Below, one piece after another: positions 77 through 21,167 of a stretch of 64,000 nucleotides of DNA. The stretch spans positions 35,713 through 99,712 of the forward strand of contig DATLOE010000003.1 of NCBI GenBank assembly GCA_035536395.1, given 5' to 3'. How positions within the stretch are numbered: the first letter of the stretch is position 1; each line of letters begins with the position of its first letter. The translations under genes were made by a program, and so were the position numbers. A model generated the notes under the pieces. The model worked only from the letters and a program-made list of their open reading frames with translations, was not told the origin of the DNA and did no database searches. The DNA is from Candidatus Dormiibacterota bacterium (GTDB taxonomy: Bacteria > Patescibacteriota > Saccharimonadia > UBA4664 > DATLOE01).

Positions 77-777
77 TTGGCTTCTCCTGCTGCTACCTTA
101 GTCTTGGTTGCAGCTTTTGGCTGGGCCTTCTTCTCTGATTTTTTAGATTCTCCCAGCCAGTTTTCGATTTTGTCTGCGGCATCAGCCGTAATTACGACAG
201 TGTCGGCATTTAGAATCACAAAAACATTCAGGTAGTTAGCGGCGGAGACGACCAGCTCGGGGATATTACGGGTCGAGCGGTCTATGGCATCGGTTTTCTC
301 GGGCACTACCAAGAGCACTCTGCCGGTAACGCCAATCTTCTGCAGCAGCGCGAGGGCTGTTTTAACTTTGCCATTTCCGCCATCGAATGATTCCAGAATA
401 ATTACTTTCTTATCAGCAGCTTGGGCGCTCAGCGCCTGGCGAATAGCCAACCGGCGAACCTTTTGCGGAAGCTGAACTTTGTGATTCTCCTCGCCTGTTG
501 GGCCAAAAGTTACACCGCCGCCCTTCCAGTGAGGTATGCGGATAGAACCGGCCCTGGCCCGCCCGGTACCCTTCTGTCGCCAAGGTTTACGACCGCCGCC
601 GCGCACTTCGCCGCGGGTCAGCACTTTGGCCTGGGCGCTGCGGCCATTAGCCAGATAGGTGTTGTATGCCAGCTTTAAGAGATCGTGGTTCAGTTCCAGC
701 CCAAAGACTTCTTTGGCTAGCGTTACCTGAGCCTCTTTTTTAGCTCCGGTCTTGGAATATGCGGTTACCTTACTCAC
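73..777 (-). CDS. rplD: 50S ribosomal protein L4
   Basis: The 234 aa ORF carries the L4 hallmark RGGGRKPWRQKGTGRAR and lies directly downstream of rplC with an 8 nt overlap. Confidence 0.95.
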   Translation of the reverse strand: MSKVTAYSKTGAKKEAQVTLAKEVFGLELNHDLLKLAYNTYLANGRSAQAKVLTRGEVRGGGRKPWRQKGTGRARAGSIRIPHWKGGGVTFGPTGEENHKVQLPQKVRRLAIRQALSAQAADKKVIILESFDGGNGKVKTALALLQKIGVTGRVLLVVPEKTDAIDRSTRNIPELVVSAANYLNVFVILNADTVVITADAADKIENWLGESKKSEKKAQPKAATKTKVAAGEAK

Positions 778-1438
778 TTGCAGCCTCCTGGCGCTCAGTC
801 GGCTTGATTAGCTTGATCATTACCAAAGATTTACGCGGACCGGGCACGGCGCCTTTTATAGCTACTAGGTTTTTGTCGGCCTCTACCTGTACTACTTTCA
901 AGTTTTTGACGGTTGTGCGCTCACCGCCCATGCGGCCGGCCATTTTAATACCCTTAAAGACCTTCTGGGGGTAGGCGCCGCCGATAGAGCCGGGCTGGCG
1001 ATGGTTGTGCGAACCGTGGCTCTTGGGGCCGGTAGCAAAATTATGCCGCTTTACGGTACCGGCAAAGCCCTTGCCTTTACTGGTAGAAGTTACCTGCACG
1101 GTGTCACCTGCCTGAAAAATACCGGCGTCTATCTTAGCGCCGACCTTAATCGGCTCTTCACCCTCTACAGCCTCTACGTCAGTTACCGAATCTTCCATCC
1201 GTACCTCACGCAGAACCTGTGGAGTAGCTTCACTAAATGTGGCATGTCCGGCTTGCGGTTTTGCCGGGTTCTTGGCCTTGCCAAGCCCCATCTGAATTGC
1301 CATATAGCCATCTTTTTCGCCGGTCTTTACCTGAGTAACCACACAGGGGCCAGCCTCCAGCACGGTGACGCGCTGAACGTTACCTTCTGCATCGAAGATC
1401 TGTGTCATTCCCAGTTTTCGGCCCAAGATAGCCTTCAT
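770..1438 (-). CDS. rplC: 50S ribosomal protein L3
   Basis: The 222 aa ORF has L3 motifs (MKAILGRKLGMTQIF, FKGIKMAGRMG) and a GGAG ribosome-binding site upstream. Confidence 0.95.
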   Translation of the reverse strand: MKAILGRKLGMTQIFDAEGNVQRVTVLEAGPCVVTQVKTGEKDGYMAIQMGLGKAKNPAKPQAGHATFSEATPQVLREVRMEDSVTDVEAVEGEEPIKVGAKIDAGIFQAGDTVQVTSTSKGKGFAGTVKRHNFATGPKSHGSHNHRQPGSIGGAYPQKVFKGIKMAGRMGGERTTVKNLKVVQVEADKNLVAIKGAVPGPRKSLVMIKLIKPTERQEAASE

Positions 1439-1576
1439 CCCGTTTGTTTTGCTCCTTAAACATATAAAATCCTAGGATTCGATCGGTTTTCCGCCTTTAG
1501 GGCGAAACCCTATCAACTCCTAGTTGGGTTAATGTGTATCTGGTCCGGCGGGCGCCGGATGCATTACTACCAAGTG

Positions 1577-1606
1577 AATATACCAGTAAATATGCTCTCC
1601 TGTCAA
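1577..1606 (-). promoter_or_regulatory. Sigma70-like promoter for rplC (minus-strand sense: TTGACA, 18 nt spacer, TATATT), about 130 nt upstream of the start
   Basis: Read on the minus strand: -35 TTGACA at 1606..1601 and -10 TATATT at 1582..1577. The intervening 5' UTR (1440..1575) contains GC-rich hairpins such as ccggcgggcgccgg. Confidence 0.4.
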
Positions 1607-1633
1607 CAGATATAGCCCAGTTACTTTAACTAT

Positions 1634-1661
1634 TGACAACATAAGCTCTTTAGTGTATAGT
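1634..1661 (+). promoter_or_regulatory. Sigma70-like promoter (TTGACA, 16 nt spacer, TATAGT) for the small plus-strand ORF, which would be leaderless
   Basis: TTGACA at 1634-1639 and TATAGT at 1656-1661, with the first ATG at 1671 only 9 nt downstream. Confidence 0.4.
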
Positions 1662-1670
1662 ATTTGCCAT

Positions 1671-1889
1671 ATGAATACTAATGATTTGTTCTACAATTTA
1701 GAGCGCGCATACGGGCGGATTACAGCTATTAATATAGTCCGCTGGGTTATTGCTTACGTGGTATGGATATTTATCTACACCCAGTTGCCGGAGTCGGTTT
1801 GGGTCGTGCGGCCATTTATGACATTCGTGGCTCAAGTGTTGATAGTAGTTATTATGATCGCGGCTATCGAAAAAGCCCGTAAGATGTAA
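1671..1889 (+). CDS. Small hydrophobic membrane protein (72 aa from the ATG at 1671; the track ORF begins at a GTG at 1653)
   Basis: Two predicted transmembrane segments (VRWVIAYVVWIFIY, VAQVLIVVIMIAAI) and a promoter immediately upstream. No homolog recognised. Confidence 0.4.
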   Translation: MNTNDLFYNLERAYGRITAINIVRWVIAYVVWIFIYTQLPESVWVVRPFMTFVAQVLIVVIMIAAIEKARKM

Positions 1890-1946
1890 CGTCGCCTATC
1901 GTTCGGGTAAAGCAAGAACAAAAGGGTGAGGAGTTTAGAGGTATAC

Positions 1947-3725
1947 TCATGACGCCTTGCCTATTAGTTCGCAGGCAAAATTGGTTGTCCCTGCACCATC
2001 TGCATTCACCGTGGAGCTGTTTCCGCTGCCGATTCCAACATTAACCTGGAAGTAATCAGTTGTGCCGTTAGCTAGGAACGTTCCGGTTGTACTAAGAACC
2101 GGGTTTATGGCCCCGGGAATACCATACCACTCCGCAGCCGCTTTACCGGTGTTGTTATTAACGATAGACCAGCTAACTGTTTGGCTGGCGGCCAGGGTGG
2201 ACATATATATTTGGGCTGAACAGCGATAGTAGCCCTTGATCGTGGGAGTAAACCGGCTGTTGCTGGTATCAAACCAGTTGGATACGTCCCAATCCTCAGC
2301 GTTAAAGGTCACATTCACACCCGCGCCCCCTGGGGTTGGGCTTTGAGAGTTGGTCGTTTTTCTTACACGAAAGCTGCCGGCAGCAAATCCATTAGCATCC
2401 TTGCCGGTTGAGCTCACACTGACACTCTCTGTAGTAATAAACCCGTCTTTATCTATCACAAACTTATCGCCTAGGGAGCCGTTGGTAAGAACCAATAGCT
2501 TAGCCCCAGAGGTGGTTAAGTTGGTATTGGCTTTCAGCTGAAAAGCTATAGTGCTGGCACCATCAGCCTTATTAGAGAACAGTATGCCTCCGGAAGTATC
2601 TACACCCAGTAAGGTAGTCCCCGCCGCATTCTGGACTTGGAAGGCAGTAGTAGAGTTGGCGGCGTTTTTGAATAAAGCGGTACCTTCTCCGGTAAAGTTA
2701 TTAGAAACCACCAGGGAGCCACTGTTAGTTAGTGTGGCAGCGGCTGAACGATATAGGGCAACGTCAATATTTGCGCCTGAATACCAATCTATCTCACTGC
2801 TAGCATCCAGCAGTATGCTAGCTCCTGAGCGCATATCCAGTGCTGGGCCATTGATGTATATGCGGCCACTAAATACTCCGTTGCCTGCTACATCCAGAGT
2901 ATCGGTCGGTGTTTTGCCTATGCCTACCCAGGCGTTAGTGGTGTCGGCCACCAGCAGGTTAGCTCCAGCTGCATTCTGGATTCTGAAGGCAGTGGTAGAG
3001 TCGGCGGCATTACGATGCAGGAGTGTGCCATTGAACCGGTTGTTACCGGTAAAGGTCTGAGGGCCGGTGCCGTTTAGTAGGGCTATGTTAGAGCTTAGTG
3101 CACTATCTGCTACCTTGCCAGCAGTCGAGATGGTGTTTAGCTTAGAGTCAGCTATAGAGCCGGCCAGTTCAGCATTCTCTATCAGCTGGCCGAGTAGAGA
3201 GACGGAAGAGCTTAGTCTGGCGTTATCTAGAGTGCCAGAGGAAAGATTGGTGGCATTAAGGGAGGTAAGGGAGGCACCGGAGCCTGCGAAGGTACCGGCT
3301 TGAACCGTACCTGACACATTGATGTTACCGGTCTCTTGCACTCCTGGGCTGGTGGCCTGGAGTGAGACACAAGTGCCATTGGGGCAGGTGGCAGTACCAC
3401 TGGGGCCTTGGGCACCGGTGGCGCCGGTTGCACCTGTTGGGCCAGTGGCTCCGATTGCACCAGTGACTCCCTGGATGCCTTGTTCCCCTTGTGGGCCGGT
3501 GGAGCCTTGCAGGCCTTGAGATCCCTGGGAGCCTGGCGCACCTTGGAGGCCGGCTGCGCCGGTGAGGCCTATGGGGCCAGCAGTACCGGCTATGCCTTGT
3601 TCACCTCTTGGACCGCGCTCACCGGGGTAGGTTAGGAATTGATCAGCTAGGAGGCCGGCGCCTGAGCTAATGAGGGCGGTGGCTAGGATTAGGGTTAGAA
3701 GTTTGGGGGTGGTTAGGTTCATCAT
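1947..3725 (-). CDS. Membrane-anchored collagen-like (G-X-Y) fibre protein with fibre-type beta repeats and a C1q/TNF-like C-terminal head
   Basis: N-terminal hydrophobic anchor [18 protein letters not shown], then about 75 aa of GxY triplets ([13 protein letters not shown]...), then three copies of the module [17 protein letters not shown]. The C-terminus ([10 protein letters not shown]...[10 protein letters not shown]) resembles BclA/C1q-like domains. Its start overlaps the upstream gene's stop as ATGA. Confidence 0.8.
3098..3395. repeat. About 300 bp near-identical direct repeat, copy 1 (partner at 5581..5880)
   Basis: By eye the nucleotide sequence from cttagtgcactatctgctacc through ggggcaggtggcagt matches copy 2 at about 95%, with 75-85% identity continuing through the GGN collagen-coding region. 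Confidence 0.7.
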
Positions 3726-6316
3726 TCTGCCCTAAAGGTTATGCCATCAAGTGGGAGATACTCTGTAGCGCCAAAGATGTACAATACTTCACCTGCGGAT
3801 CCTGGAGTAAGATTTTTTGATTTAATTACGAAACCACCCAGTATATAGCCAGTACCAGAGCTCCATGAAGCAGTAGAAAACTCCGCATCAGATGTACCAT
3901 CGGGTGCGTACCCTGAAGGCAAAGTGAATATCCTACTAGCTGTTCCCGATGACCGTTTTGCCTGACCTTTAAGGTGAACTACTCCCATAGAATCCTTAAA
4001 GAAGGCAACTGGCCTGTTTGCATCATAATTACCCCAGCCCGTATTAAAGGCCGGCTCTCCGACACCACCTACAAGATGCCAATTTTCCTGCTTAATATAG
4101 CCATCTTTATCTATCGAGAACTTCTCCACTCCATTATTCTTGAGGGATAGCAGTTTAGCACCGGAGGTAGCTAGAGAGACGGTGGTGTTGAAGGTAAAAC
4201 CTACCGCAGTAGCTCCATCTGCTACGCTACTAAATATGCGTGCGTTACTGGTATCAACACCGAATAAGGTAGTCCCAGTTGCATTCTGCACCTGGAAGGC
4301 GGTGGTGGAGTTGGTGGAGTTTTTGAATAAGACTGTCCCCCTGACAGCTAGCTCCTGACCAACCGAGACAGATTGGGTAAAGGTGGCTGGTCCCTGCACT
4401 TGAAGTTGGCCGACCACATTGGTATTGCCCGCCGTCAATTCACCACCCGTCCCGCCTTCAGCCAAGTTTTGGCCGCCCAGACCAACCAGATCAACCGCCC
4501 CACCAATCTTCAGCCGGGAGACTGAGGCATAATAAATAGTGTTTTGAATGCTCTCACCATCATAACCAGCCATTACATAGACCCAGCCATTAGCGATGAT
4601 TGAGCTAGCTGCCCTTCTTGTTGTTGGAAGAGCGGCTAAGTTAGTACTCCAACTGCCTACAGACCCATCGGCATTCAACTTTCCATAGTGGACAGTGGCT
4701 GCGGAATTGCCACCAATTACATACACGTATCCGTCTGCTACTACTGATGAGTGGTTCTCCCGGATAGCAGGCAACGTATTACTATTGGTTGACCAAGCCC
4801 CAGTTGAACCGTCGGCGTTTAACTTTGCGTAGTAAACAGTTGATTGAGCAGCACTGTCGTTTGCACCACCAATCACATAGACATAACCGTTTGCCACAAT
4901 AGAGCTGTGTGAATTTCGAACAGCTGGCAGAGCGTTAGCATTGGTACTCCAGCTGCCAGTGGAGCCATCGGCGTTAAGTTTGGCGTAGTAGACAGTTGAT
5001 TGAGCACTAGCATTAAATCCACCCAATACATATACGTATCCATTTGCAACTACAGAACTGGCAAAACTTCGAGCGGCAGGTAGTGTATTAGAGTTGGTTT
5101 GCCAAGCATCGGTTGAGCCGTCGGCGTTGAGCTTAGCGTAGTAGACAGTAGAGTCTGGTGTGCGCCCACCAATCACGTAAATATATCCATTAGCCACAAC
5201 TGATGTATGGGCTGATCGTACGGCAGGCAAGGCATTCGCATTGGTGGACCAGGTTCCAGCGGATCCATCAGCATTTAGCTTGGCATAATAGACAGTGGAT
5301 TGGGCATTTCCAGATCCAGTCGAATTTTCTCCACCAATCATATACACAAACCCATTAGCAGTGACTGAAGAATGTAACCAGCGGACACCTGGCAAGGCAT
5401 TACTGCCAGTACTCCAACTCTGCAGTTCACCCGAATTTAGTCCGTTAAGAGTTAAATTGCCATTGGTAGTATCTACCTGAAAAAGACTACCTGCCGCTGC
5501 ATTCTGTATCTGGAAGGCGGTCGTGGAATTGGCGGCGTTTCGGTGGAGAAAGGTGCCGTTGAGTAAGGCTACATTGGCACTTAGTGCACTATCTGCTACC
5601 TTGCCGGCAGTCGAGATGGTATTTAGCTTAGAGTCAGCTATAGAGCCGGCCAGTTCAGCATTCTCTATCAGCTGGCCTAAGAGTGAGACGGAAGAGCTTA
5701 GTCTGGCGTTATCTAGAGTGCCAGAGGAAAGATTGGTGGCATTGAGGGAGGTTAGTGAAGCTCCGCTCCCGCTGAAGGAGCCGGCTTGAACCGTACCTGA
5801 CACATTGATATTACCGGTCTCTTGCACCCCTGGGCTTGTGGCCTGGAGTGAAACACAAGTGCCATTGGGGCAGGTGGCAGTGCCGGATGGGCCGGTGGCT
5901 CCGGTTGCACCTGTTGCACCAGTGGCTCCAGTTGCACCAGTGGCTCCCTGGATACCCTGCTCCCCTTGCGGGCCGGTTGAACCTTGGATACCTTGGGCGC
6001 CCTGCTCGCCTGGCGAGCCCTGCAAGCCGGCTGCACCGCTTAGGCCGATGAGGCCAGTGGCTCCCTGGGTACCTTGCTCGCCTTTTGGTCCACGCTCCCC
6101 AGGGTAGGTTAGGTACTGGTCGGCAATGAGACCGCCTGCGGCTCCGACTATGGCAGTTGTAAAGAAGATCATAAGTAGTTGGTTGAAGGAGAGGGAGAGT
6201 ATCCCGGCTTGATTCTTGAGTAACGCAAATAGACCCGTTGGGGGCGGGGTGTTTGGTTGGTGCGAATGCTTCGCAATGGAACCTTTGATGCCTTTTAGGC
6301 CATGAAGGTTAACCAA
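3722..6316 (-). CDS. Membrane-anchored collagen-like fibre protein with a six-blade Kelch-type beta-propeller and a distinct C-terminal domain. The start is uncertain: TTG at 6316 or ATG at 6172.
   Basis: Transmembrane segment [18 protein letters not shown], GxY triplets including (GAT)x5, a shared N-terminal module [30 protein letters not shown], and six repeats of the form [14 protein letters not shown]......P..R......[11 protein letters not shown]. Confidence 0.8.
4530..5450. repeat. Six tandem units of about 150 bp encoding the Kelch blades
   Basis: Repeated DNA units of the form ccaccaatcacata[cg]a[ct]a...cc[ag]tt[ag]gc.ac.a.tga, visible in the sequence and in the protein repeats. Confidence 0.6.
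5581..5880. repeat. About 300 bp near-identical direct repeat, copy 2 (partner at 3098..3395)
   Basis: See copy 1. It encodes the shared module [50 protein letters not shown]. Confidence 0.7.
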
Positions 6317-6357
6317 CCGGATGATAACTCCTCTTTAGTTTTTATTTACTCCACCTT

Positions 6358-6446
6358 GCTTATGCCAAGAACAGGGTGTTTAAGACCCCGAGAAAGCATA
6401 AGCGTGATGTGTAGTAATTATACCGCTTATGCTCAGGGAGTGTAAA
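6358..6446 (-). promoter_or_regulatory. Promoter (TTTACA, 18 nt spacer, TATAAT) plus three copies of the GCTTATGC / GCATAAGC motif upstream of the collagen-fibre operon
   Basis: On the minus strand: -35 TTTACA at 6446..6441 and -10 TATAAT at 6422..6417. Motif copies sit at 6358-6365 (forward), 6396-6403 (reverse) and 6425-6432 (forward, directly abutting the -10). Confidence 0.45.
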
Positions 6447-6455
6447 GGGGTAAAA

Positions 6456-6701
6456 TTAGAATCGCCAAGTGACAGTAATGCCGATACCGAAGAGGCCTAG
6501 CAATGAAGCAATTACAAGTATGGCGTACTCTATTTTGCGATCAATCTGCAGCTTTTCATGACGAACTGCAAGTAAGCCCAGAATCAGGCCGAAGGGCAGC
6601 AGGCGGGCCTCGTTAAAAGCAAACCAAACGCTTCCGATAATGAAGTACAGCAGGATTTTTAAAAAGTAGATGCTATCGAGTTCTTGTTTTACAGGTTTCA
6701 T
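6456..6701 (-). CDS. Small two-TM membrane protein (81 aa from the ATG at 6701; the track ORF extends to 6770)
   Basis: An AGGGG ribosome-binding site precedes the ATG at 6701, and the protein has two hydrophobic helices. The motif copy GCTTATGC lies at 6723-6730, 22 nt upstream. Confidence 0.4.
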   Translation of the reverse strand: MKPVKQELDSIYFLKILLYFIIGSVWFAFNEARLLPFGLILGLLAVRHEKLQIDRKIEYAILVIASLLGLFGIGITVTWRF

Positions 6702-6865
6702 ACCCCTATCTAACCACAAAATGCTTATGCTGTCATCTCCAATGCGCTTATCTTGGCGTTCCCACAACATTCCCCTTGCCCGCCTCAGAAGCTCTTGTTA
6801 ATGCTCCTAATGCCTAACGGCACCTATTGCCTGTAGGATGGAGACAGTAATAAAGGGGGTATGCA

Positions 6866-7089
6866 TGGCAAAAGAACGAGGCAAAATGAGTCGGGCCGAG
6901 GCCGGCAAGCTAGGCGGCGAGGCTACGAGTAAAAAACATGATTCAGAGTTCTACTCTGAGATCGGTCAGAAAGGCGGCCAAGAAAGCGGAGGGAACTTTA
7001 AAAATGACCCCGAGCGGGCCAGGGAGGCCGGCAAGAAAGGCGGCCAGGCATCCACTAGCCGGAGCAGAGAGGATACAGAAGAAATATAG
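6866..7089 (+). CDS. KGG-repeat stress-induced protein (YciG / Con-10-like)
   Basis: MAKERGKMSRAEAGKLGGEATSKK...GQKGGQESGGNF...AGKKGGQAS carries three KGG-type repeats. An AAGGGGG ribosome-binding site sits 6 nt before the ATG at 6866 (the track ORF starts at 6838). Confidence 0.6.
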
Positions 7090-7096
7090 CCTGATA

Positions 7097-7125
7097 AAAG
7101 AGCCCCTTCGGGGGCCTTTTTTATT
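7097..7125 (+). terminator. Rho-independent terminator after the KGG gene
   Basis: Hairpin gagcccc-ttcg-ggggc followed by TTTTTTATTTCTCTCTTT. Confidence 0.6.
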
Positions 7126-7305
7126 TCTCTCTTTAAAACAAAATAACGCCTTTGCTGGAGTGGAGTACAAGGCAGAATCGATATCTAAATAAGTTTATAT
7201 TTTGATGAGATGCAAGGCGGCGCTGAAGCGCGCCAGTGAGCAGTAGCCAAACCTACTGTGAATGCGCACTGGAAGCGCCAACGCCGCAGCTCGCGAAATA
7301 CAAAG

Positions 7306-7752
7306 TTATTGCTTGTAGTAGGAGCGGATTTGGAACAGAATGTACAACCCTATAACCGCGCTCACCAGACCGCTTACAATCTGACCGTTCATAATGCTGT
7401 AAACGAGGTTAACGATGTCACTGTAGAACACTAGGTTCCAGCCGCTCATCTTGCGGGCAAACAGGCCCGGCAGAGCTGCTATCATCAACACTACCTGCAC
7501 AATGAGGGCAATTAAAGCCGCGCCCAAACCGGCGGCTGCTGTAGCTCCCCCGAGGCCAGAAAATGGCAGTACGGCCGCGCCTAAGCCCAGCGCCACTAAG
7601 ATGGCCGGTGCCAGAAGCACTAATATTACGATGTTTATCCATGGAGCGTACTTTACTATCCAGTCTTTAGCGCCTTTGGGGATCTGGAAGGGAGCCTTTG
7701 TTACAAAATAATACTCCATCTTTTGCATGATACCTTGTGATTGCTGGGCCAT
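7306..7752 (-). CDS. 4-TM membrane protein, paralog A (unknown family)
   Basis: 148 aa. Shares with paralog B the features W(I/V)V(K/R)(Y/N)A.W, KGWNL, and a C-terminal QIRSYYK. Confidence 0.55.
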   Translation of the reverse strand: MAQQSQGIMQKMEYYFVTKAPFQIPKGAKDWIVKYAPWINIVILVLLAPAILVALGLGAAVLPFSGLGGATAAAGLGAALIALIVQVVLMIAALPGLFARKMSGWNLVFYSDIVNLVYSIMNGQIVSGLVSAVIGLYILFQIRSYYKQ

Positions 7753-7817
7753 AAGTTTTCCTTTACTTAAGGTTAATTTGCTTTAATTAAAGCACTACGG
7801 CACCCAAAAAGCAATAC

Positions 7818-7826
7818 GCTTATGCT
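7818..7826. promoter_or_regulatory. GCTTATGCT motif copy upstream of paralog A
   Basis: cgCTTATGCTTtg lies about 66 nt upstream of the ATG at 7752 and overlaps the stop of the preceding gene. Confidence 0.35.
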
Positions 7827-8281
7827 TTGTAATAAGAGCGAATTTGGAGCAGTATATAGAAGCTAATGCCGGTTATTACTACAGCCGTTACGTAATGGCC
7901 AAAAACGATATCGTATATTGTATGGGTTATGGCAGCCGCGGCCAGCAGATTCCAGCCCTTCATCTCTCTGCGCTCTAGCGGCTTAATGGCCAGTGCGATC
8001 AATATAAACTGGATGATTAATGCTACCGCCCCGCCGCTTATATCACTGGCTGAACTTGGTATACCCAGAAATGCCAGCGGCAGCTTGTTTATACCCAGCA
8101 CCACGGCCAGCGCTACTACCGGCAGATAGAGAATGGTGAGCAATATGGCTACCCAGTGAGCGTTGCGTACGATCCACTCCTTAGCCCAGAAAGGCAGGCG
8201 GTACCCGCCGCCATCGCTGTAGCCGCGCACGGCTGCCTGACGGCCAGAATTGCCCCGGTTTACCTTGCGTCCGCCCGCCAT
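7820..8281 (-). CDS. 4-TM membrane protein, paralog B
   Basis: 153 aa ending QIRSYYKA. A GAAGGGGAA ribosome-binding site lies inside the end of the upstream micro-ORF. Confidence 0.55.
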   Translation of the reverse strand: MAGGRKVNRGNSGRQAAVRGYSDGGGYRLPFWAKEWIVRNAHWVAILLTILYLPVVALAVVLGINKLPLAFLGIPSSASDISGGAVALIIQFILIALAIKPLERREMKGWNLLAAAAITHTIYDIVFGHYVTAVVITGISFYILLQIRSYYKA

Positions 8282-8284
8282 CTG

Positions 8285-8416
8285 CTATTCCCCTTCGACG
8301 CCCGGCAGATCTACCTTGTGGCCGTTCGTACAGTGGCCATGATTGTCTTGTTCCTGGCAGTCTTCATCTTGGCAGTTTAGAGCTACTTCTTCGCTACATT
8401 CTACGCATTTAGCCAT
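8285..8416 (-). CDS. Cys/His-rich 43 aa micro-protein, a putative zinc-binding peptide (below the ORF-track size cutoff)
   Basis: MAKCVECSEEVALNCQDEDCQEQDNHGHCTNGHKVDLPGVEGE, with 6 Cys and 3 His. A consensus AGGAGG ribosome-binding site sits 6 nt upstream, and its stop is 3 nt from the ATG of paralog B. Confidence 0.45.
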   Translation of the reverse strand: MAKCVECSEEVALNCQDEDCQEQDNHGHCTNGHKVDLPGVEGE

Positions 8417-8442
8417 AAATTCCTCCTGTTAGGTTTATTAAT

Positions 8443-8454
8443 GCTTATGCTTAT
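8443..8454. promoter_or_regulatory. Tandem GCTTAT-GCTTAT motif copy upstream of the micro-protein operon
   Basis: atGCTTATGCTTATat lies 27 nt upstream of the ATG at 8416. Confidence 0.35.
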
Positions 8455-8488
8455 ATTTTAGCACATCTGGTGAATATTTTAGAAAAAG

Positions 8489-9154
8489 TTAGCTCTTAAG
8501 CCGAGAGTACTCGGCAATAAGCTTTACCTTATCCTTAAAGTCAGGGGTCGCGCGCCACTTACTCAGTAGCTGCTTGTCTGTCCTTAGGCTATATGAAGCC
8601 CTAGATTTTTCCGCGCTTAAATCTTTAAGCAGTAAGTCGGTCATTAATTCCATAAATAATCTATTTTGGCCCTTACCAATGTCAACTTTGGATTGCCTAA
8701 TATATTCGATAATATATAAATGCATCAGCTCATGCAGTAGCGGATCTATAAAGTTCGGCCAGTCATAATAAAGATCAATGCGTTTTTTATCCGAGAAAGC
8801 AATATGCGGAGGAATTGCCGACAGGCCAATAATACAAATACCAGAAATTTTTACTGGTACAGTTGCTTCACAAATTTTTATTACTCCCCCTCCGTCTTGA
8901 GTCAGTTGTTTTTGCAACCGATCTTTTGCCTTTGCAAATAAGCCTCTGTTTTGCTTATAAAAGTTATCAAAGTAATCTTCTAGCGGTTTGAGCGCGCTTC
9001 CTTTTGGATAGGTCTGATAAATATTGGCGAGATCAGGATGCCGACTCACTATCACATTATAGTAGCTTAATCCTGACCACTCAGGCATTGAATATCCAAA
9101 TGCCCCTGCCTTAAGCGGGTCAAAATCCTTTGCCAGTTGGATTGTAAACTTCAT
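8489..9154 (-). CDS. Cytoplasmic HExxH-motif protein, a putative zinc metallohydrolase of unknown family
   Basis: 221 aa containing DPLLHELMHLYIIEY. A TATAAT at 9169..9164 lies only about 10 nt upstream of the ATG, so the transcript is probably leaderless. Confidence 0.45.
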   Translation of the reverse strand: MKFTIQLAKDFDPLKAGAFGYSMPEWSGLSYYNVIVSRHPDLANIYQTYPKGSALKPLEDYFDNFYKQNRGLFAKAKDRLQKQLTQDGGGVIKICEATVPVKISGICIIGLSAIPPHIAFSDKKRIDLYYDWPNFIDPLLHELMHLYIIEYIRQSKVDIGKGQNRLFMELMTDLLLKDLSAEKSRASYSLRTDKQLLSKWRATPDFKDKVKLIAEYSRLKS

Positions 9155-9210
9155 AGACCATCTATTATAAAGAAAAATGGCCAGTTTGGAGACATGGCCA
9201 GGTCTTTTTT

Positions 9211-9366
9211 CTACTTGTCCTCCCAGCCAGGGTATATCCGCTCCATGGCCTCGTCGGACTTCTGCTCGTCAGAGGCAGAACCCGGAGGGGAGGAGGGAGA
9301 TGAGGAAGAACCAGAGGAATCCGAGCTCTCTGAGCCCGAGGAACCGCTACTGGACTCTCCGTCCAT
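9211..9366 (-). CDS. Ser/Gly-rich acidic 51 aa micro-ORF (uncertain)
   Basis: MDGESSSGSSGSESSDSSGSSSSPSSPPGSASDEQKSDEAMERIYPGWEDK with AAAGGAG 5 nt upstream of the ATG. It competes with the low-complexity track ORFs 9137..9400 (+) and 9165..9482 (-). Confidence 0.3.
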   Translation of the reverse strand: MDGESSSGSSGSESSDSSGSSSSPSSPPGSASDEQKSDEAMERIYPGWEDK

Positions 9367-9547
9367 TTGCACTCCTTTGTCTGGGCATCCAATTTTTTAA
9401 GCTGCCGGACTATCCGGCCTCTTGTCGTATTGGGCGCCGTTTGATAGGTGCTTGGAGGGGATAGGCAGAGCCTAGACGCCATCTCCGTAGCAGTACGCTA
9501 ACTTATACAACAATTACTGCAATTATTCAATAGATGAGTAGCTATGT

Positions 9548-9886
9548 TTACAAATAAAACGCCAAGATGCCATGTTCGGCAATTTTTTCTCTATAGCCCT
9601 GAAAGCCATAATAAACCTTTTCGGCTTCCTCTAGGGATTCTATACCTGGCATAACCTTGCCAAAATCACCTGATTTATAGATGTCTTCTACAGATTTATA
9701 GTGCCTAATGTCTTTCACGGTCTTTTCGATCGTGTCGCTACCGCATTTGATTACTAACGTATCGCCAACTTCGATTTTCTTAAACTTAACTGTGCCAGCG
9801 CGGGTTTCTACCGTCTTCCGCCCCACCCGAATATCTTCGAACTCATCCTTATCCCCCGCCCTGAATCTTAGAATATGCTTTTTCAT
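9548..9886 (-). CDS. ASCH/PUA-like small domain protein
   Basis: 112 aa beginning MKKHILRFRAGDKDEFEDIRVGRKTVETRAG, a pattern that resembles ASCH domains. Assigned from memory. Confidence 0.4.
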   Translation of the reverse strand: MKKHILRFRAGDKDEFEDIRVGRKTVETRAGTVKFKKIEVGDTLVIKCGSDTIEKTVKDIRHYKSVEDIYKSGDFGKVMPGIESLEEAEKVYYGFQGYREKIAEHGILAFYL

Positions 9887-9922
9887 TTTGCCCCCACTGT
9901 GGATAAATCTATTGTCATAGCG

Positions 9923-9948
9923 CTTATGCTTGCTACAATAAGCATAAG
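9923..9948. promoter_or_regulatory. Perfect 9 bp inverted repeat CTTATGCTT-N8-AAGCATAAG, an operator-like site
   Basis: cgCTTATGCTTgctacaatAAGCATAAGta lies 37-62 nt upstream of the ATG at 9886. Confidence 0.45.
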
Positions 9949-10013
9949 TATAATATTCAGAACTAATGCGAGTGGGGAGTGTAGTTGCTTCCCTCTCGTT
10001 TTTTGATCCTTAA

Positions 10014-10214
10014 CTAGTCGTTAAGAAGATCATTAAGCGAGTCTTTGCCGCGCCGCTCGAGCAGCGTGTCGAGATACATATCAGAGCGAACATTAAAGTC
10101 CACCCCATATTGCTCCTCGATCGTGCGTACGTGGGTATCCCCACGCTTCTCACGAAGCGGGCCTCTGGAGTTTCGGGAGCGGTGACCCCGCATCCCTGGA
10201 GCATCCTTAGCCAT
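10014..10214 (-). CDS. Small hypothetical protein (66 aa from MAKDAPG; the track ORF extends to 10265)
   Basis: A GAAAGG ribosome-binding site precedes the internal ATG, and the protein is basic. The motif copy CTTATGCTTGCTAC lies at 10362-10375. Confidence 0.35.
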   Translation of the reverse strand: MAKDAPGMRGHRSRNSRGPLREKRGDTHVRTIEEQYGVDFNVRSDMYLDTLLERRGKDSLNDLLND

Positions 10215-10361
10215 TGCAAGCCTTTCTAGCCGGTGTCTTAAGGTGTTTATCCGGCCAGTCCTCAACCGAACACCACACCGTAAAGGAGAGAGGCCTCCCC
10301 ACTCACATCAATTCTCAAGGAATGAATACTAGGTTAGCAAAAACTCACGTGTCGCACAATA

Positions 10362-10375
10362 CTTATGCTTGCTAC
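10362..10375. promoter_or_regulatory. Motif copy CTTATGCTTGCTAC
   Basis: A 14 nt stretch identical to 9923-9936. Confidence 0.35.
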
Positions 10376-11058
10376 TTGAGGTAGTTGGGCAAGGCTTGGC
10401 GGTTTGGCAGCCACTTAGTATACCAACCAAGCAGTTCCGGAGGCAAAAGACTGTCATGCAATTCAGTACCGATGAAAGAATGCAATTCGTCAGTAAAATC
10501 AGTAGATCCCGGCAGCACACCCCTATGATGGTATGATGCAGTGCGTTGATCAAACGCCGCTTTGTGCTGACCATACACAATATTTAAATATGGGGTCAGG
10601 CGGTTTCTTTCAGATTCTGAACTAATAAACCACACGTAATGTAGATATTCATGGGCTAAAGTTGCCCTTTGCTCTAATAAATCTCTCTGTAAAATCTCCG
10701 GCGCCAAGTAAATAGTGCCGTCTTTAATAGCGCCATAGGCATGATATGAAGCTGCAAAGCAGCCTGTAGAGCCTGGTGGGCAACCCATTGGAAGAGGGGC
10801 AATCCTAGCCTTTGTTCTTAGTAAATCGTCTCGATTAATACCTAAATCTGCGCCCCACTGCTCAATGCGGCGATCAAGAACAAACTTAGGGTCAATCGGG
10901 AAAGAGCCAAGTCCTATTCTTGGGTTATAGCCTATCTTCTCTCGCACACTCTTGATAAGAGGGTGCTCAATCGCCGTGGGATCCAAGACCAAGCCAATTG
11001 CTAACACGGCAATGATGACTGCAACCTTAAAGCCCGTTTTGAAAACATGCTTTTTCAT
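10372..11058 (-). CDS. Secreted or membrane-anchored HExxH-motif protein, a putative zinc metallopeptidase
   Basis: N-terminal hydrophobic segment VAVIIAVLAIGLVL and the motif TLAHEYLHYVWF. Confidence 0.5.
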   Translation of the reverse strand: MKKHVFKTGFKVAVIIAVLAIGLVLDPTAIEHPLIKSVREKIGYNPRIGLGSFPIDPKFVLDRRIEQWGADLGINRDDLLRTKARIAPLPMGCPPGSTGCFAASYHAYGAIKDGTIYLAPEILQRDLLEQRATLAHEYLHYVWFISSESERNRLTPYLNIVYGQHKAAFDQRTASYHHRGVLPGSTDFTDELHSFIGTELHDSLLPPELLGWYTKWLPNRQALPNYLK

Positions 11059-11071
11059 CTTTTAGAAGTTA

Positions 11072-11839
11072 CTAGCTTTCTTTCTGATCCCAAATAATTA
11101 CTTCTTTGTGCAACTCTTGAACTGACTGAAGATAGAAGAGCATATCGCGAGCAGCTCTCTCGACTACATATCCGCGAAGTGAACGCCAATTTTCAACATT
11201 ATCTTGCGACCAGTCTTTTTCAGGAGAATTCAGTAAGAAAGGAAAAAGATTCACATTTTTCTCTAGTTCGGTTAATGCACGTCTTACTTTGAGCATTTTT
11301 GCATAAACGGTTTTTGGCATCACAGAAGAATAATACTGTAGATTCTCATTGGCTGATTTTCTTAATTCTTCAATATTTTTTATTAGGCTGTCCCACTTGT
11401 CGGGTGGTAGCTTAGTCATAGCTTGACCCAGGTCAATTGCAATTAAATTACTGAGTATAGCCTCTTGTGCAGCTTTAGTGGATTCTTCCTGACGGTCGGT
11501 ATCAATTTTGTATTGGGTTATATCAAAGCCTAAAGGTGATGACACCCAGATGATAAGCGTATTACGAAGTCTTTTCATATCCTCAAGGGCGGATTCCATG
11601 CCCTCGCGAAGGCTAAGCTTATCCTTCCTATCCTTCAGTACCTCGATGAAAAATACGGTGAGCAGGGAGCTAAAGGCGCCGGCAGAGAGGTTAAGGGTCA
11701 TGTCACTCCACCGAAAGTGCTTTTCCTGATAGCCTAATGCCACAAAGAGTCCAACCGACATCACCAAAAGGGCGAGAAAAATAATGATATTAGCACGAGA
11801 GTAAAGGAGCCTGTAAAATTTCCTAAAGGCCCGACGCAT
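11072..11839 (-). CDS. Membrane protein with two N-terminal TM segments and a long cytoplasmic helical region, unknown function
   Basis: 255 aa. Its start is 3 nt downstream of the rpsJ stop, so it is probably co-transcribed with tuf-rpsJ. Confidence 0.5.
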
Positions 11840-11842
11840 ACA

Positions 11843-12184
11843 TTACATCTTAATTTCTATGTCCACCCCAGCGGGGAGGTTCAAATTCATCAGGTTGTCT
11901 ACGGTCTTTGGCGTAGGCTCTGTAATGTCTATTAAGCGCTTATGTGTGCGCATCTCAAACTGTTCCCGCGCTTTCTTAAAAATGTGCGGGCTTTTAATAA
12001 CGGTAGTCACGTTTCTATCTGTCGGCAGCGGAATCGGCCCGGCCACTTTGGCGCCGGTACGAATCGCCGTATCTAGAATCTGCTTGGCAGACTGATCTAT
12101 CACCTTATTGTCATACGCCTTTAAGCGAATGCGTATTCTCTGTTTGGGTGCTTCAGTATTTTCTTTCTTTTTTGCTTCTGCCAA
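11843..12184 (-). CDS. rpsJ: 30S ribosomal protein S10
   Basis: Contains [22 protein letters not shown]...HKRLIDI. Confidence 0.95.
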
Positions 12185-15112: not shown

Positions 15113-15155
15113 ATAAAAAAGCCCCTGACTTAGAAGTCGGGGGCTTTCGCCTTTT
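15111..15155. terminator. Bidirectional intrinsic terminator between the convergent PyrD-like gene and fusA
   Basis: gcccctgactt-ag-aagtcgggggc, flanked by an A-run on the 5' side and a T-run on the 3' side. Confidence 0.6.
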
Positions 15156-17235
15156 AAGCCTTGGCTGTGCGCTTACCTATAATTTCTTCAGCCACATTCG
15201 GCGGCACTTCCTCGTAATGATCAAATTCCATCGAGTTCGAGGCCCGGCCTTGGGTCATTGAACGCAGAGTGGTGGTGTAGCCGAACATCTCTGCCAGCGG
15301 CACGAACGCGTCTACCACCTTGGCCTGGCCACGGTCATCCATTTTCTCTATCCGCCCGCGCTTGGAGTTAAGATCACCGATAACATCACCCATAAACTCC
15401 TCGGGTGTTACCACCTCTACCTTCATGACTGGCTCGAGCAGTACCGGGCTGGCCTGCTTTACGCCGGCCTGCAGTGCCATGGAACCGGCAATCTTAAAGG
15501 CCATTTCGCTAGAGTCTACATCGTGGTACGAGCCATCGTAGAGCTTAACGTGCACATCTACCACCGGGTAGCCGGCCAGAACACCATTCTGCAAAGCTTC
15601 TTTTACACCCTGCTCAACTGGGGCAATGTATTCGCGCGGAATATTACCGCCGGTAATAGCGTTCTTGAATTCAAAGCCTGCGCCCGGCTCCTGCGGGGTC
15701 AGCTCCAGCCAGACATGGCCGTACTGGCCGCGGCCGCCGGATTGGCGAATGTACTTGCCTTCGATCTTGGCCGGCTTGCGAATGGTTTCGCGGTAAGCCA
15801 CCTGCGGGCGGCCAATATTGGCCTCTACCTTAAACTCACGCTTCATACGATCTACAATAATATCCAGGTGCAGCTCGCCCATACCAGAAATCAAAGTCTG
15901 GTTGGTTTCGTGATTAGTCGTCATTCTAAATGTCGGATCTTCCTCGGCCAGGCGCTGCAGAGCAATACTCATCTTCTCTTGGTCGGCCTTGGTCTTCGGC
16001 TCGATGGCGATGGAAATAACCGGCTCTGGGAAGGTGATAGATTCCAGTACAATCGGGTGAGCCGGATCGCACAAGGTATTACCAGTAGTGGTAGCCTTAA
16101 GCCCCACGGCGGCGGCGATTTCGCCCGAATAGACCTCGCTGACTTCCTCGCGGTGGTTTGCGTGCATTCTAAGTATTCGCCCCAGCCGCTCCTTTTCGCC
16201 CGTGCTGGAGTTTAGGATATATGAGCCGGATTTTAATACACCCGAGTACACACGGAAAAAAGCCAGCTTACCCACGAACGGGTCGGCGGCGATCTTAAAG
16301 GCCAGGGCAGCAAACGGCTCTTCGTCTGATGCCTTACGGGTAATCTCATCGCCGCTTTTAGGCTCGATACCAGTAATTTCTGGCACATCCAGCGGGCTGG
16401 GCAGGTATGCATTTACGGCATCAAGCAGCTGCTGCACGCCTTTGTTCTTTAGGGCCGAACCACATAATACGGGGTAGATTTCGTTAGCAAGTACCGCCTT
16501 GCGCAGACCGGCCACGATATCTTCAGGACTTAGGTCACCAGCTTCTATGTATTTATCTAGCAAGGCCTCATCGGTCTCGGCTACCCGCTCTACCAAAGTG
16601 TGGCGGTACTCAGCGGCTTTTTCCTTCATGTCTTCTGGAATCTCAGCTTCGTCAAAAACCTTACCGAGGTCGTCTTTAAAGATAATCGCCTTCATATTTA
16701 CTAGGTCTATAATTCCTTTGAATCCACCCTCTGTGCCAATCGGCAGCTGTATGGCTACAGCCTTTTTGCTTAGGCGATCCCAAATGCTTTTAAGGTCGGC
16801 AAAAAAATCGGCACCGGTACGATCGAGCTTGTTTACAAAGCAAATGCGCGGCACTTCATATTTGTCGGCCTGGCGCCAAACGGTTTCTGATTGCGGTTCA
16901 ACACCAGCAACCCCATCAAAAACCGTTACTCCGCCATCTAGCACCCGCAAGCTGCGCTCTACCTCTACGGTAAAATCTACGTGGCCCGGGGTATCGATGA
17001 TGTTAATGCGGTGATCTTGCCAGAAGCAAGTGGTAGCAGCCGAGGTAATAGTAATGCCGCGCTCCTGCTCTTGCTCCATCCAGTCCATGGTGGCTTCACC
17101 CTCATGCACCTCACCGATTTTGTGGGTGCGACCGGTGTAAAACAAAACCCGCTCGGTAACTGTCGTTTTACCGGCGTCGATGTGGGCGATGATGCCTATA
17201 TTCCTGGTTTTTTCTAAGCTATATTCTCTGGCCAT
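15154..17235 (-). CDS. fusA: Elongation factor G
   Basis: 693 aa containing AHIDAGKTT. Confidence 0.97.
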
Positions 17236-20690: not shown

Positions 20691-21167
20691 CTAGTATCTG
20701 GCGAAGTGAGCGAAGGCTTTATTGGCCTCGGCCATCTTGTGGGTGTCTTCTTTCTTCTTAACGGCGTCGCCAGCGCTGTTGTAGGCATCCATCAGCTCTT
20801 TGGCTAAAATCTTATCGAACGCCCGGCCGCCTTTTGCACGAGCCGCGCCGATTATCCAGATCATAGCGTAGTGAATCTTGCGATCACCCCGGACTTCCAT
20901 TGGTACCTGGTAAGTGGCGCCACCGACCCGCTTGGCCTTGACCTGCACAGATGGAGCGACATTCTTAATTGCGGTTTCAAAAATCTCTACCGGATCCTTC
21001 TTAAGCTGATCACCGGCCTGCTCCATAGCATCGTACAGCAGCTGCTCGGCCAGACGCTTTTTGCCGTCTTGCATGATTTTATTAATCATTTTGGTAACTA
21101 AAACATTCTGATACTTTACATCAGGTATTAATTCTCTCTTAAAAGATTTCGTCTTCTTACGCGGCAT
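20691..21167 (-). CDS. rpsG: 30S ribosomal protein S7
   Basis: 158 aa with S7 motifs. Confidence 0.95.
   Translation of the reverse strand: MPRKKTKSFKRELIPDVKYQNVLVTKMINKIMQDGKKRLAEQLLYDAMEQAGDQLKKDPVEIFETAIKNVAPSVQVKAKRVGGATYQVPMEVRGDRKIHYAMIWIIGAARAKGGRAFDKILAKELMDAYNSAGDAVKKKEDTHKMAEANKAFAHFARY

Follow-up and report, generated by a model that had tools for sequence, protein, structure and literature searches.

Two tandem genes for collagen-containing modular fibers with phage-type heads: candidate surface adhesins of a probable Saccharibacteria-like bacterium

How the ultra-small bacteria of the candidate phyla radiation (CPR) recognize and hold their hosts is a largely open question. Published work on their host attachment points to type IV pili and to a small number of proteins of the VCBS, dockerin and FN3 types (PMC10633639, PMC9894109). 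Another adhesive apparatus is known from Bdellovibrio bacteriovorus, a bacterium that attacks bacteria: its mosaic adhesive trimer (MAT) fibers are phage-like trimers on the cell surface, which bind prey glycans (PMC10769870). MAT chains begin with a signal peptide, followed by a conserved, β-rich domain of ~130 amino acids, and collagen has no occurrence in their description (PMC10769870). Here, we describe two genes, A and B, in a 64-kb stretch of a metagenome-assembled genome (MAG; contig DATLOE010000003.1, positions 35,713 to 99,712), which is referred to as the window and supplies all coordinates given below. The two genes are best explained as a two-gene operon that encodes two paralogous fibers. 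We propose, with a probability of roughly 0.57, that these proteins are anchored, trimeric surface fibers, which recognize and adhere to host cells.

Like A and B, the MAT fibers come in multiple paralogs, which combine an invariant cell-proximal part with swappable tips, including TNF-like and S74 types. They differ in the host organism and its envelope type, and also at the N-terminus, where A and B have an anchor, a collagen-like tract that starts just 7–8 residues after the hydrophobic segment, and a module with a C-x4-C pair; the MAT N-domain was compared by its description. BclA and F-BclA, found in the Bacillus exosporium and in endospore appendages, share with A and B a collagen-like stalk with a Thr-rich Y position and a head at the far end of the filament. 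However, the N-terminus of A and B features a 19-residue, membrane-type hydrophobic segment instead of the exosporium-targeting domain of BclA, a long β stalk separates their collagen from the head, and they lack a sporulation context, as no spore genes were seen among their neighbors or elsewhere in the window. No homology to BclA was detected outside the G-X-Y tract (1wck, E = 0.16, collagen region only), and a phmmer search of the PDB with the B head alone returned no BclA match at E ≤ 10.

The receptor-binding proteins (RBPs) of phages, for instance gp15 of Listeria phage PSA and those of the lactococcal phages bIL170, TP901-1 and p2, resemble A and B in their head domain, and the stalk repeats of A and B are shared with viral contigs. 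In contrast to these proteins, A and B are encoded in a cellular housekeeping region without virion genes, possess an N-terminal membrane segment and show marginal sequence similarity. LPXTG-anchored streptococcal Scl1/Scl2 and Legionella Lcl likewise are bacterial surface adhesins with a collagen-like tract, but the NCBIfam matches of A and B to these proteins cover the collagen region only and reach 38–45 bits, far below the cutoffs of 325–500. Moreover, the polarity is reversed, with an N-terminal anchor and a C-terminal head. Sortase anchoring was rejected, given that neither C-terminus (...LDGITFRAE in A, ...ELIGKAS in B) carries an LPXTG motif; type IV pilin identity was rejected as well, as neither N-terminus has a G/F-x-x-x-E prepilin motif. 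Among animal proteins, the likeness to ectodysplasin A (EDA-A1) and the type II transmembrane collagens is architectural only, with no sequence relationship claimed: the eukaryotic proteins are shed signaling ligands, and B has a β stalk of ~320 residues between collagen and head. The FACIT COL1–NC1 cystine knot, whose cysteines are spaced by four residues, resembles A and B in the position of two cysteines directly after the last G-X-Y triplet, although no homology is claimed. This knot cross-links three chains after helix formation (PMC4863159); the putative disulfide in A and B, by contrast, would require an oxidizing extracytoplasmic compartment. A and B lack defining features of the bacterial collagen-like proteins, of BclA, of the phage RBPs and of the MAT fibers.

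Both genes lie on the minus strand and together fill exactly the interval 1947–6316, in which the initial annotation had placed a pair of open reading frames (ORFs). Their parts are listed below; P0002 and P0003 denote two paralogs from the same MAG.

3722..6316, minus strand: gene A, an ORF of 864 residues with N-terminal tail, anchor, collagen, module, stalk, Kelch, stalk2 and RBP-like head
6179-6316, minus strand: A, K/H-rich N-terminal tail, residues 1–46, present if the TTG at 6316 is used
6122..6178, minus strand: A, hydrophobic segment, putative signal-anchor, residues 47–65; Kyte–Doolittle mean over 19 residues 2.17; aligned with the corresponding segments in B, P0002 and P0003
5876..6100, minus strand: A, collagen-like tract, residues 73–147, 25 uninterrupted G-X-Y triplets
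5564..5875, minus strand: A, conserved junction/stalk module, residues 148–251
5447..5563, minus strand: A, first NSTTAF stalk repeat, residues 252–290
4505..5446, minus strand: A, six-blade Kelch β-propeller inside the shaft, residues 291–604 (Pfam PF24681 plus Kelch_6/Kelch_1)
4082..4504, minus strand: A, post-Kelch junction and the stalk2 common with B, residues 605–745
3725..4081, minus strand: A, head of 119 residues (746–864), predicted phage-RBP/adenovirus-knob-like β-sandwich with the motif W..VG..F.N.W.NY...FKD..GVVHLKG...LPSGY.P...LDGITFRA
3722-3725, minus strand: ATGA overlap of the A stop (TGA) and the B start (ATG); the junction reads GCA GAA TGA / ATG ATG AAC
1947..3725, minus strand: gene B, an ORF of 592 residues with anchor, collagen, module, stalk, stalk2 and C1q/TNF head
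3645..3701, minus strand: B, hydrophobic segment, putative signal-anchor, residues 9–27; Kyte–Doolittle mean 2.05
3390..3623, minus strand: B, collagen-like tract, residues 35–112, 26 uninterrupted G-X-Y triplets
3078..3389, minus strand: B, conserved junction/stalk module, residues 113–216, 96% identical to that of A
2718..3077, minus strand: B, middle stalk with NSTTAF repeat, residues 217–336
2424..2717, minus strand: B, stalk2, residues 337–434, ending in a DKDG.I motif
1950..2423, minus strand: B, head, residues 435–592, predicted C1q/TNF-like jelly-roll
5861-5878 (A) and 3375-3392 (B), minus strand: Cys-x4-Cys after the last G-X-Y triplet; also found in loci L001-L016 and L148-L169

Much of this anatomy had been anticipated by the initial annotation. 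The start of the second gene overlaps the stop of the first as ATGA, the collagen tracts have the expected length of about 25 triplets, and fiber-type repeats of the NSTTAF type, two per protein, adjoin a nearly identical module of ~100 residues. Across this module, 100 of 104 amino acids are identical, while the DNA identity amounts to 90.7%, with 20 synonymous differences in 104 codons. This combination of silent divergence and 96% identical amino acids points to purifying selection on the module rather than to a simple fresh duplication. Over the region that runs from anchor to first stalk repeat, both included, A and B are 81% identical, and stalk2 (A 649–744, B 337–433) still shows 56% identity. 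Hydrophobic anchor segments are present in both proteins, but that of A would not be located at the very N-terminus if translation starts at the TTG, as the 46-residue tail then precedes it.

The six-blade Kelch propeller, which had been taken for the head of A, is present, with scores of 110.4 bits for PF24681 (cutoff 50), 66.5 bits for Kelch_6 (25.3) and 53.4 bits for Kelch_1 (20.1); it comprises six LP..R..ANGxVYVxGG blade units (residues 308–604), which would form a closed propeller. However, it lies within the shaft and is followed by a junction, by stalk2 and by a separate head. The proposed contrast between a Kelch head and a C1q head therefore gives way to one between an RBP-like β-sandwich head with an additional in-shaft Kelch domain in A and a C1q/TNF head in B. 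The same Kelch insertion is found in P0037 and in the protein of locus L012. A DNA tandem repeat underlying the Kelch blades was considered and rejected, since Tandem Repeats Finder reports only a 9/18-nt GAT-codon repeat. This repeat, at 5895-5947, codes for (Gly-Ala-Thr)n at the end of the A collagen tract and may vary in length through slipped-strand events, as is known for the GPT repeats of BclA.

The two heads are assigned on the basis of predicted structures. A model of A (residues 658–864), built from a 15-sequence alignment, has a mean predicted local distance difference test score (pLDDT) of 73.9; within the head, the N-terminal half reaches ~85–94 and the remainder 52–88. In a Foldseek search of BFVD, it matches a BppU protein of a Listeria phage, minor tail proteins of Streptomyces, Microbacterium and Arthrobacter phages, and proteins of Bacillus, Staphylococcus, Enterococcus and Lactococcus phages; by this model, the A head has an RBP fold and is nearest to bona fide receptor-binding proteins. 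The modeled head of B folds as a C1q/TNF jelly-roll, superposable on ten-strand C1q/TNF domains, and its fold matches include the TNF-like MAT tips. The C1q-like head inferred in the initial annotation is thus recovered as a fold match without a sequence-profile match: beyond Collagen, B has no Pfam match at E ≤ 0.1, and hence none to a C1q or TNF profile. The heads alone likewise match no Pfam model and give no meaningful sequence match in the PDB, where full-length B finds collagens only. Against catalogued phages, tblastn searches with the heads return marginal matches (38% over 94 residues, E = 6e-5), of which one for B is annotated as 'c1q globular head like' (28% identity, E = 1e-3). As a word-indexed search with the heads alone finds just one homolog for B and 10 for A, the alignments available for structure prediction are shallow. 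The suggested likeness to phage tail fibers and to BclA accordingly holds at the level of the fold. Ordinary intracellular enzyme domains, the alternative that had been named for the heads, were not found: the results support that neither head is enzymatic or cytoplasmic-looking.

The relatives of A and B show how these parts are combined elsewhere. The non-collagen part of B retrieves 46 proteins, two of which are P0002 and P0003, and the named ones are nearly all from Candidatus Saccharibacteria or Saccharimonadales. Under one locus-tag prefix, the same genome encodes at least four such fibers with different tips (A, B, P0002 and P0003). A survey of related genomes for the module, as suggested at the outset, yielded 64 loci among the GTDB species representatives, mostly of the Saccharibacteria type: ~50 are labeled Saccharibacteria, Saccharimonadales or Saccharimonadia, and a few belong to Parcubacteria, Woesebacteria or Falkowbacteria. 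In a set of 1.84 billion cluster representatives, the module profile, against which A and B score 132 bits, has 7225 matching proteins at E ≤ 1e-3, of which 232 still match at E ≤ 1e-30; some of the matching proteins are as long as 5556 residues, with dozens of repeats. As the repeat portion is also found in 208 viral-contig stretches of IMG/VR, the stalk represents a generic phage-type fiber repeat, and it is the architecture around the repeat, not the repeat itself, that distinguishes the cellular family. On sequence grounds, this family appears to be marked by an N-terminal hydrophobic segment, a LQ..PG..(E/Q)TGNI.(V/I)SG stalk module and a variable C-terminal head, and A and B fit this pattern. 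The hydrophobic segment is present in 59 of 76 5'-complete module ORFs from genome and metagenome loci, whereas at least eight G-X-Y triplets occur in 18 of the 76. In these 18 proteins, the distance from the end of the collagen to the module never exceeds 15 residues, and each of the 18 junctions has a C-x4-C (C-x3-6-C) pair; among 104 module starts that lack collagen, just 17 have one.

The tips are interchangeable among the relatives, in which we find Collar, Peptidase_S74 (in L010, L015 and L016), right-handed β-helix, Kelch and ConA-like DUF1349/GH43_C2 domains. Some relatives carry DUF1349/GH43_C2 at the position of the Kelch propeller in A, with stalk2 and then a head of the B type behind it, and the protein of L012, from another MAG, keeps the entire A architecture at 40% identity. 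Tandem fiber genes are found at L006 (4608-12595), at L009 (7744-16321) and on a metagenome contig with two adjacent Kelch-bearing fibers (L147, 2-6328), while L175 (4498-6872) has two module ORFs with a 4-nt overlap, as in A and B. The A head type also terminates mini-fibers of 120–218 residues, some with an anchor and short collagen. In three such metagenomic proteins (P0049, P0050 and P0052; 171–182 residues), a hydrophobic N-terminus and ~10 G-X-Y triplets precede a head of the A type with the ending LDGITFRAE, which indicates that this head is a cassette that moves independently. For the B head, there is just one close homolog, P0047 (277 residues), which lacks an anchor; its gene, at locus L145 (1-14380), lies among arrayed genes for large Gly_rich_2 (PF21722) proteins, and this array is followed by an S8 peptidase and may be a phage or fiber gene cluster. 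No close relative of the locus turned up in a metagenome scan (best match, 75% identity over 65 residues of the module), and in none of the 64 GTDB loci do rpsJ, rplC or the other genes surrounding A and B stand beside the fiber gene.

This diversity of tips bears on the question of whether the fibers need to recognize anything at all. They could form a structural coat or spacer similar to the BclA nap, without a specific receptor and with heads that serve in trimerization and capping. B follows the logic of BclA, with a collagen stalk and a C1q-like cap, and the trimerization of many collagens is nucleated by C-terminal globular domains. In addition, the Thr-rich GAT repeats resemble the GPT repeats of BclA, which are glycosylated. 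Yet a coat would not require multiple paralogs whose tips are unrelated, or a Kelch or ConA-like domain inserted laterally; the Collar, S74 and β-helix tips of the relatives are cassettes for host recognition in phages, and the A head is nearest to genuine receptor-binding proteins. We consider a mere coat unlikely.

The argument for membrane anchoring starts from the N-terminal region. Both collagen tracts, in which Gln and Thr abound at the Y position, pass the Pfam Collagen cutoff (PF01391; 51.9 bits in A and 50.0 bits in B, cutoff 27.2), so that the G-X-Y tracts prove collagen-like as far as their sequence goes. Between anchor and collagen, a juxtamembrane stretch, LADQ(Y/F)L.YPGERG, is kept in all four paralogs. 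If the hydrophobic segment were instead a cleaved Sec signal peptide, the fibers would be released or held non-covalently on the wall or S-layer, and the N-terminus of B, with one Lys and ~19 hydrophobic residues that include SSGAG, can indeed be read in this way. However, no A-x-A type site directly precedes the juxtamembrane stretch, which, being conserved in the four paralogs, is probably retained, and the tails of 30–46 residues before the segment in A and P0003 are atypical of Sec signals. Cleavage and release thus seem improbable.

The genomic context is informative with respect to a viral origin, in which A and B would be tail-fiber or RBP genes of a prophage remnant, a tailocin or a gene-transfer particle, and hence parts of a virion rather than of the cell surface. 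Matches to PHROG tail-fiber families, mostly via the collagen tract, point in this direction, as do the stalk repeats in IMG/VR, the resemblance of the head folds to those of phage RBPs and the weak tblastn matches. On the other hand, A and B, like most of their relatives, have a hydrophobic membrane segment in place of a virion-attachment domain. The operon sits within a 10.4-kb insert of ~12 genes between rpsJ (11843-12184) and rplC (770-1438), with a promoter-like site of its own, and genes for capsid, tail, baseplate, terminase or integrase proteins were found neither in the surrounding 10 kb nor in the 64-kb window. The insert itself is marked by no integrase, tRNA or phage gene; its remaining genes (for small membrane proteins and proteins of unknown function, plus one each for a KGG stress and an ASCH protein) have no PHROG structural match and no PADLOC defense match (nor do A and B have the latter), and NCBIfam gave nothing useful. 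The rest of the window is devoted to housekeeping, with genes for EF-Tu, EF-G, rpoBC, ligA, gatAB, dnaE, a Clp ATPase, PBP1 and recG. A role in virions is accordingly quite improbable.

Least credible of all are A/B heterotrimers in the manner of the C1q A, B and C chains, with stoichiometry set by translational coupling: the ATGA overlap and the matching module (96%) and collagen (81%) would suit them, but the chains lose register past the module, where they differ by ~270 residues and in domain order, the collagen tracts are unequal by one triplet, and the unlinked P0002 and P0003 keep the module, whose conservation is thus independent of A/B pairing.

We therefore favor host-binding fibers anchored in the membrane. 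The sequence anatomy, the fold class of the heads, the distribution of the family and the lack of a phage context are directly supported here; topology, trimerization, the disulfide lock, surface exposure, adhesion and the nature of the ligand we infer along the following lines. An uncleaved N-terminal hydrophobic helix would anchor each chain in the cytoplasmic membrane in a type-II-like topology (N-in/C-out). Three chains would then form a collagen triple helix of 25–26 triplets, with a length of ~21–22 nm at the standard rise of 0.286 nm per residue, and a disulfide at the C-x4-C pair may lock its distal end, comparable to the FACIT cystine knot. From there, the β-structured, phage-tail-fiber-like stalk would extend outward and hold the head beyond the cell wall. 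In fiber A, the tip would be the RBP-like β-sandwich, with one six-blade Kelch propeller per chain projecting laterally; this propeller could be an accessory site that binds a glycan or protein. Accessory carbohydrate-binding inserts are known from phage baseplate proteins. In fiber B, the C1q/TNF jelly-roll would form the tip, and the swapping of tips could provide specificity for different surface structures of host cells. Recognition and adhesion are suggested by the need of Saccharibacteria epibionts for adhesins, by the binding of prey glycans by the phage-like fibers of Bdellovibrio, and by the presence of at least four fibers in one genome. Cultivated Saccharibacteria are obligate epibionts on other bacteria and need several adhesins (PMC10633639).

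Several points weigh against this proposal. In a cultivated saccharibacterium, the adhesins reported as essential belong to different classes, namely VCBS, dockerin and FN3 (PMC10633639). The collagen tracts contain few prolines (4–6 of ~50 X/Y positions), so that triple-helix stability is putative, and the distinction between a signal-anchor and a cleaved signal peptide was assessed by hydropathy only. The model of B has low overall confidence, with a mean pLDDT of 53.5. Finally, the MAG is labeled Candidatus Dormibacteraeota in NCBI (proteins HVE80626-HVE80684), and our assignment of the contig to the CPR rests on the distribution of relatives, on LemA and M48 identities and on a GC content of ~50%. 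We doubt the NCBI label for this contig because the fiber family is essentially confined to the CPR, because LemA and an M48 protease are 75% and 50% identical, respectively, to proteins of a Saccharimonadales MAG, and because of this GC content; on these sequence-based grounds, we regard a Saccharibacteria-like member of the CPR as the most likely source organism. An independent taxonomy did not emerge from 12 housekeeping proteins, which are all singletons at 90% identity and labeled Dormibacteraeota. It is possible that the bin is mislabeled, chimeric or from a poorly sampled lineage.

If the proposal is true, anchored fibers with swappable, phage-style tips are concrete and testable candidates for determinants of host range, and the hosts of uncultured CPR bacteria may become predictable from the tip type. 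It would also represent a second, independent case, after the MAT fibers of Bdellovibrio, in which a bacterium that exploits other bacteria reuses the adhesion toolkit of phages. The strict association of collagen with the C-x4-C pair, in turn, is putatively a compact and possibly engineerable bacterial trimer-locking unit. More tentatively, and rather doubtfully at present, one may imagine a phylum-wide arsenal in CPR bacteria and Saccharibacteria, built as membrane-anchored fibers from phage tail-fiber parts and determining host range. Collagen and C-x4-C would then be a counterpart of the FACIT knot and act as a wall-spanning spacer, and the tips would target the same glycopolymers of the Gram-positive host wall that phages use. 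The RBPs and minor tail proteins nearest to the A head come from phages of Gram-positive and actinobacterial hosts.

As for novelty, the ingredients are all familiar, from collagen-like proteins of bacteria, from BclA with its C1q cap, from the RBP heads of phages and from the MAT fibers. In no paper did we find a description of their combination, concentrated in the CPR, in which a membrane anchor is joined to collagen and to a module with the C-x4-C pair, and a phage stalk, optionally with a lectin-like domain inside the shaft, leads to a head that can be swapped. To call A and B themselves a novel fiber family, as had been ventured, overstates the case, given the wide occurrence of the repeat and the presence of the anchored architecture in dozens of Saccharibacteria genomes. 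The family as such, however, is undescribed: in the literature on Saccharibacteria, Patescibacteria or CPR, we found nothing relevant on collagen-like, triple-helix or tail-fiber proteins.

The claim of a single operon was borne out as a two-gene unit, with the following signals ahead of gene A.

6417..6446, minus strand: promoter-like site TTTACA-18-TATAAT (11/12 matches; consensus match only), ~100 nt upstream of the A start
6328..6336, minus strand: Shine–Dalgarno-like AAAGAGGAG, 11 nt ahead of the TTG start of gene A, as read from the sequence

The former site may be the promoter of gene A, but promoter-like sites are no more numerous in the region than shuffles predict. The TTG at 6316 is the sole in-frame start upstream of Met49 in gene A, and we favor it because the alignment with P0003 extends upstream of Met49. 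B is identical to the NCBI protein VNA68_00590 of the MAG, and the exact 864-residue form of A is absent from the protein collection.

Some further observations concern the surroundings. The genes rpsJ and rplC, which are usually adjacent, are separated by the insert, the two genes and the insert together covering 770-12184, and rplC is provided with a promoter-like site of its own (1606..1577, minus strand). Between B and rplC, an ORF for a hydrophobic protein of 78 residues (1653-1889, plus strand) runs convergently to gene B. The gene for the KGG-repeat stress-induced protein (PF10685; 6838-7089) is also on the plus strand, while nearly all genes in the window are on the minus strand. The str operon is interrupted, too, with four genes, including one for a NUDIX protein, between S7 (20691-21167) and EF-G (15154-17235). 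Lastly, two adjacent genes at 7306-7752 and 7820-8281, for which searches of Pfam, NCBIfam, PHROG and PADLOC gave no match, encode paralogous small membrane proteins that share 39% identity and both end in QIRSYYK.

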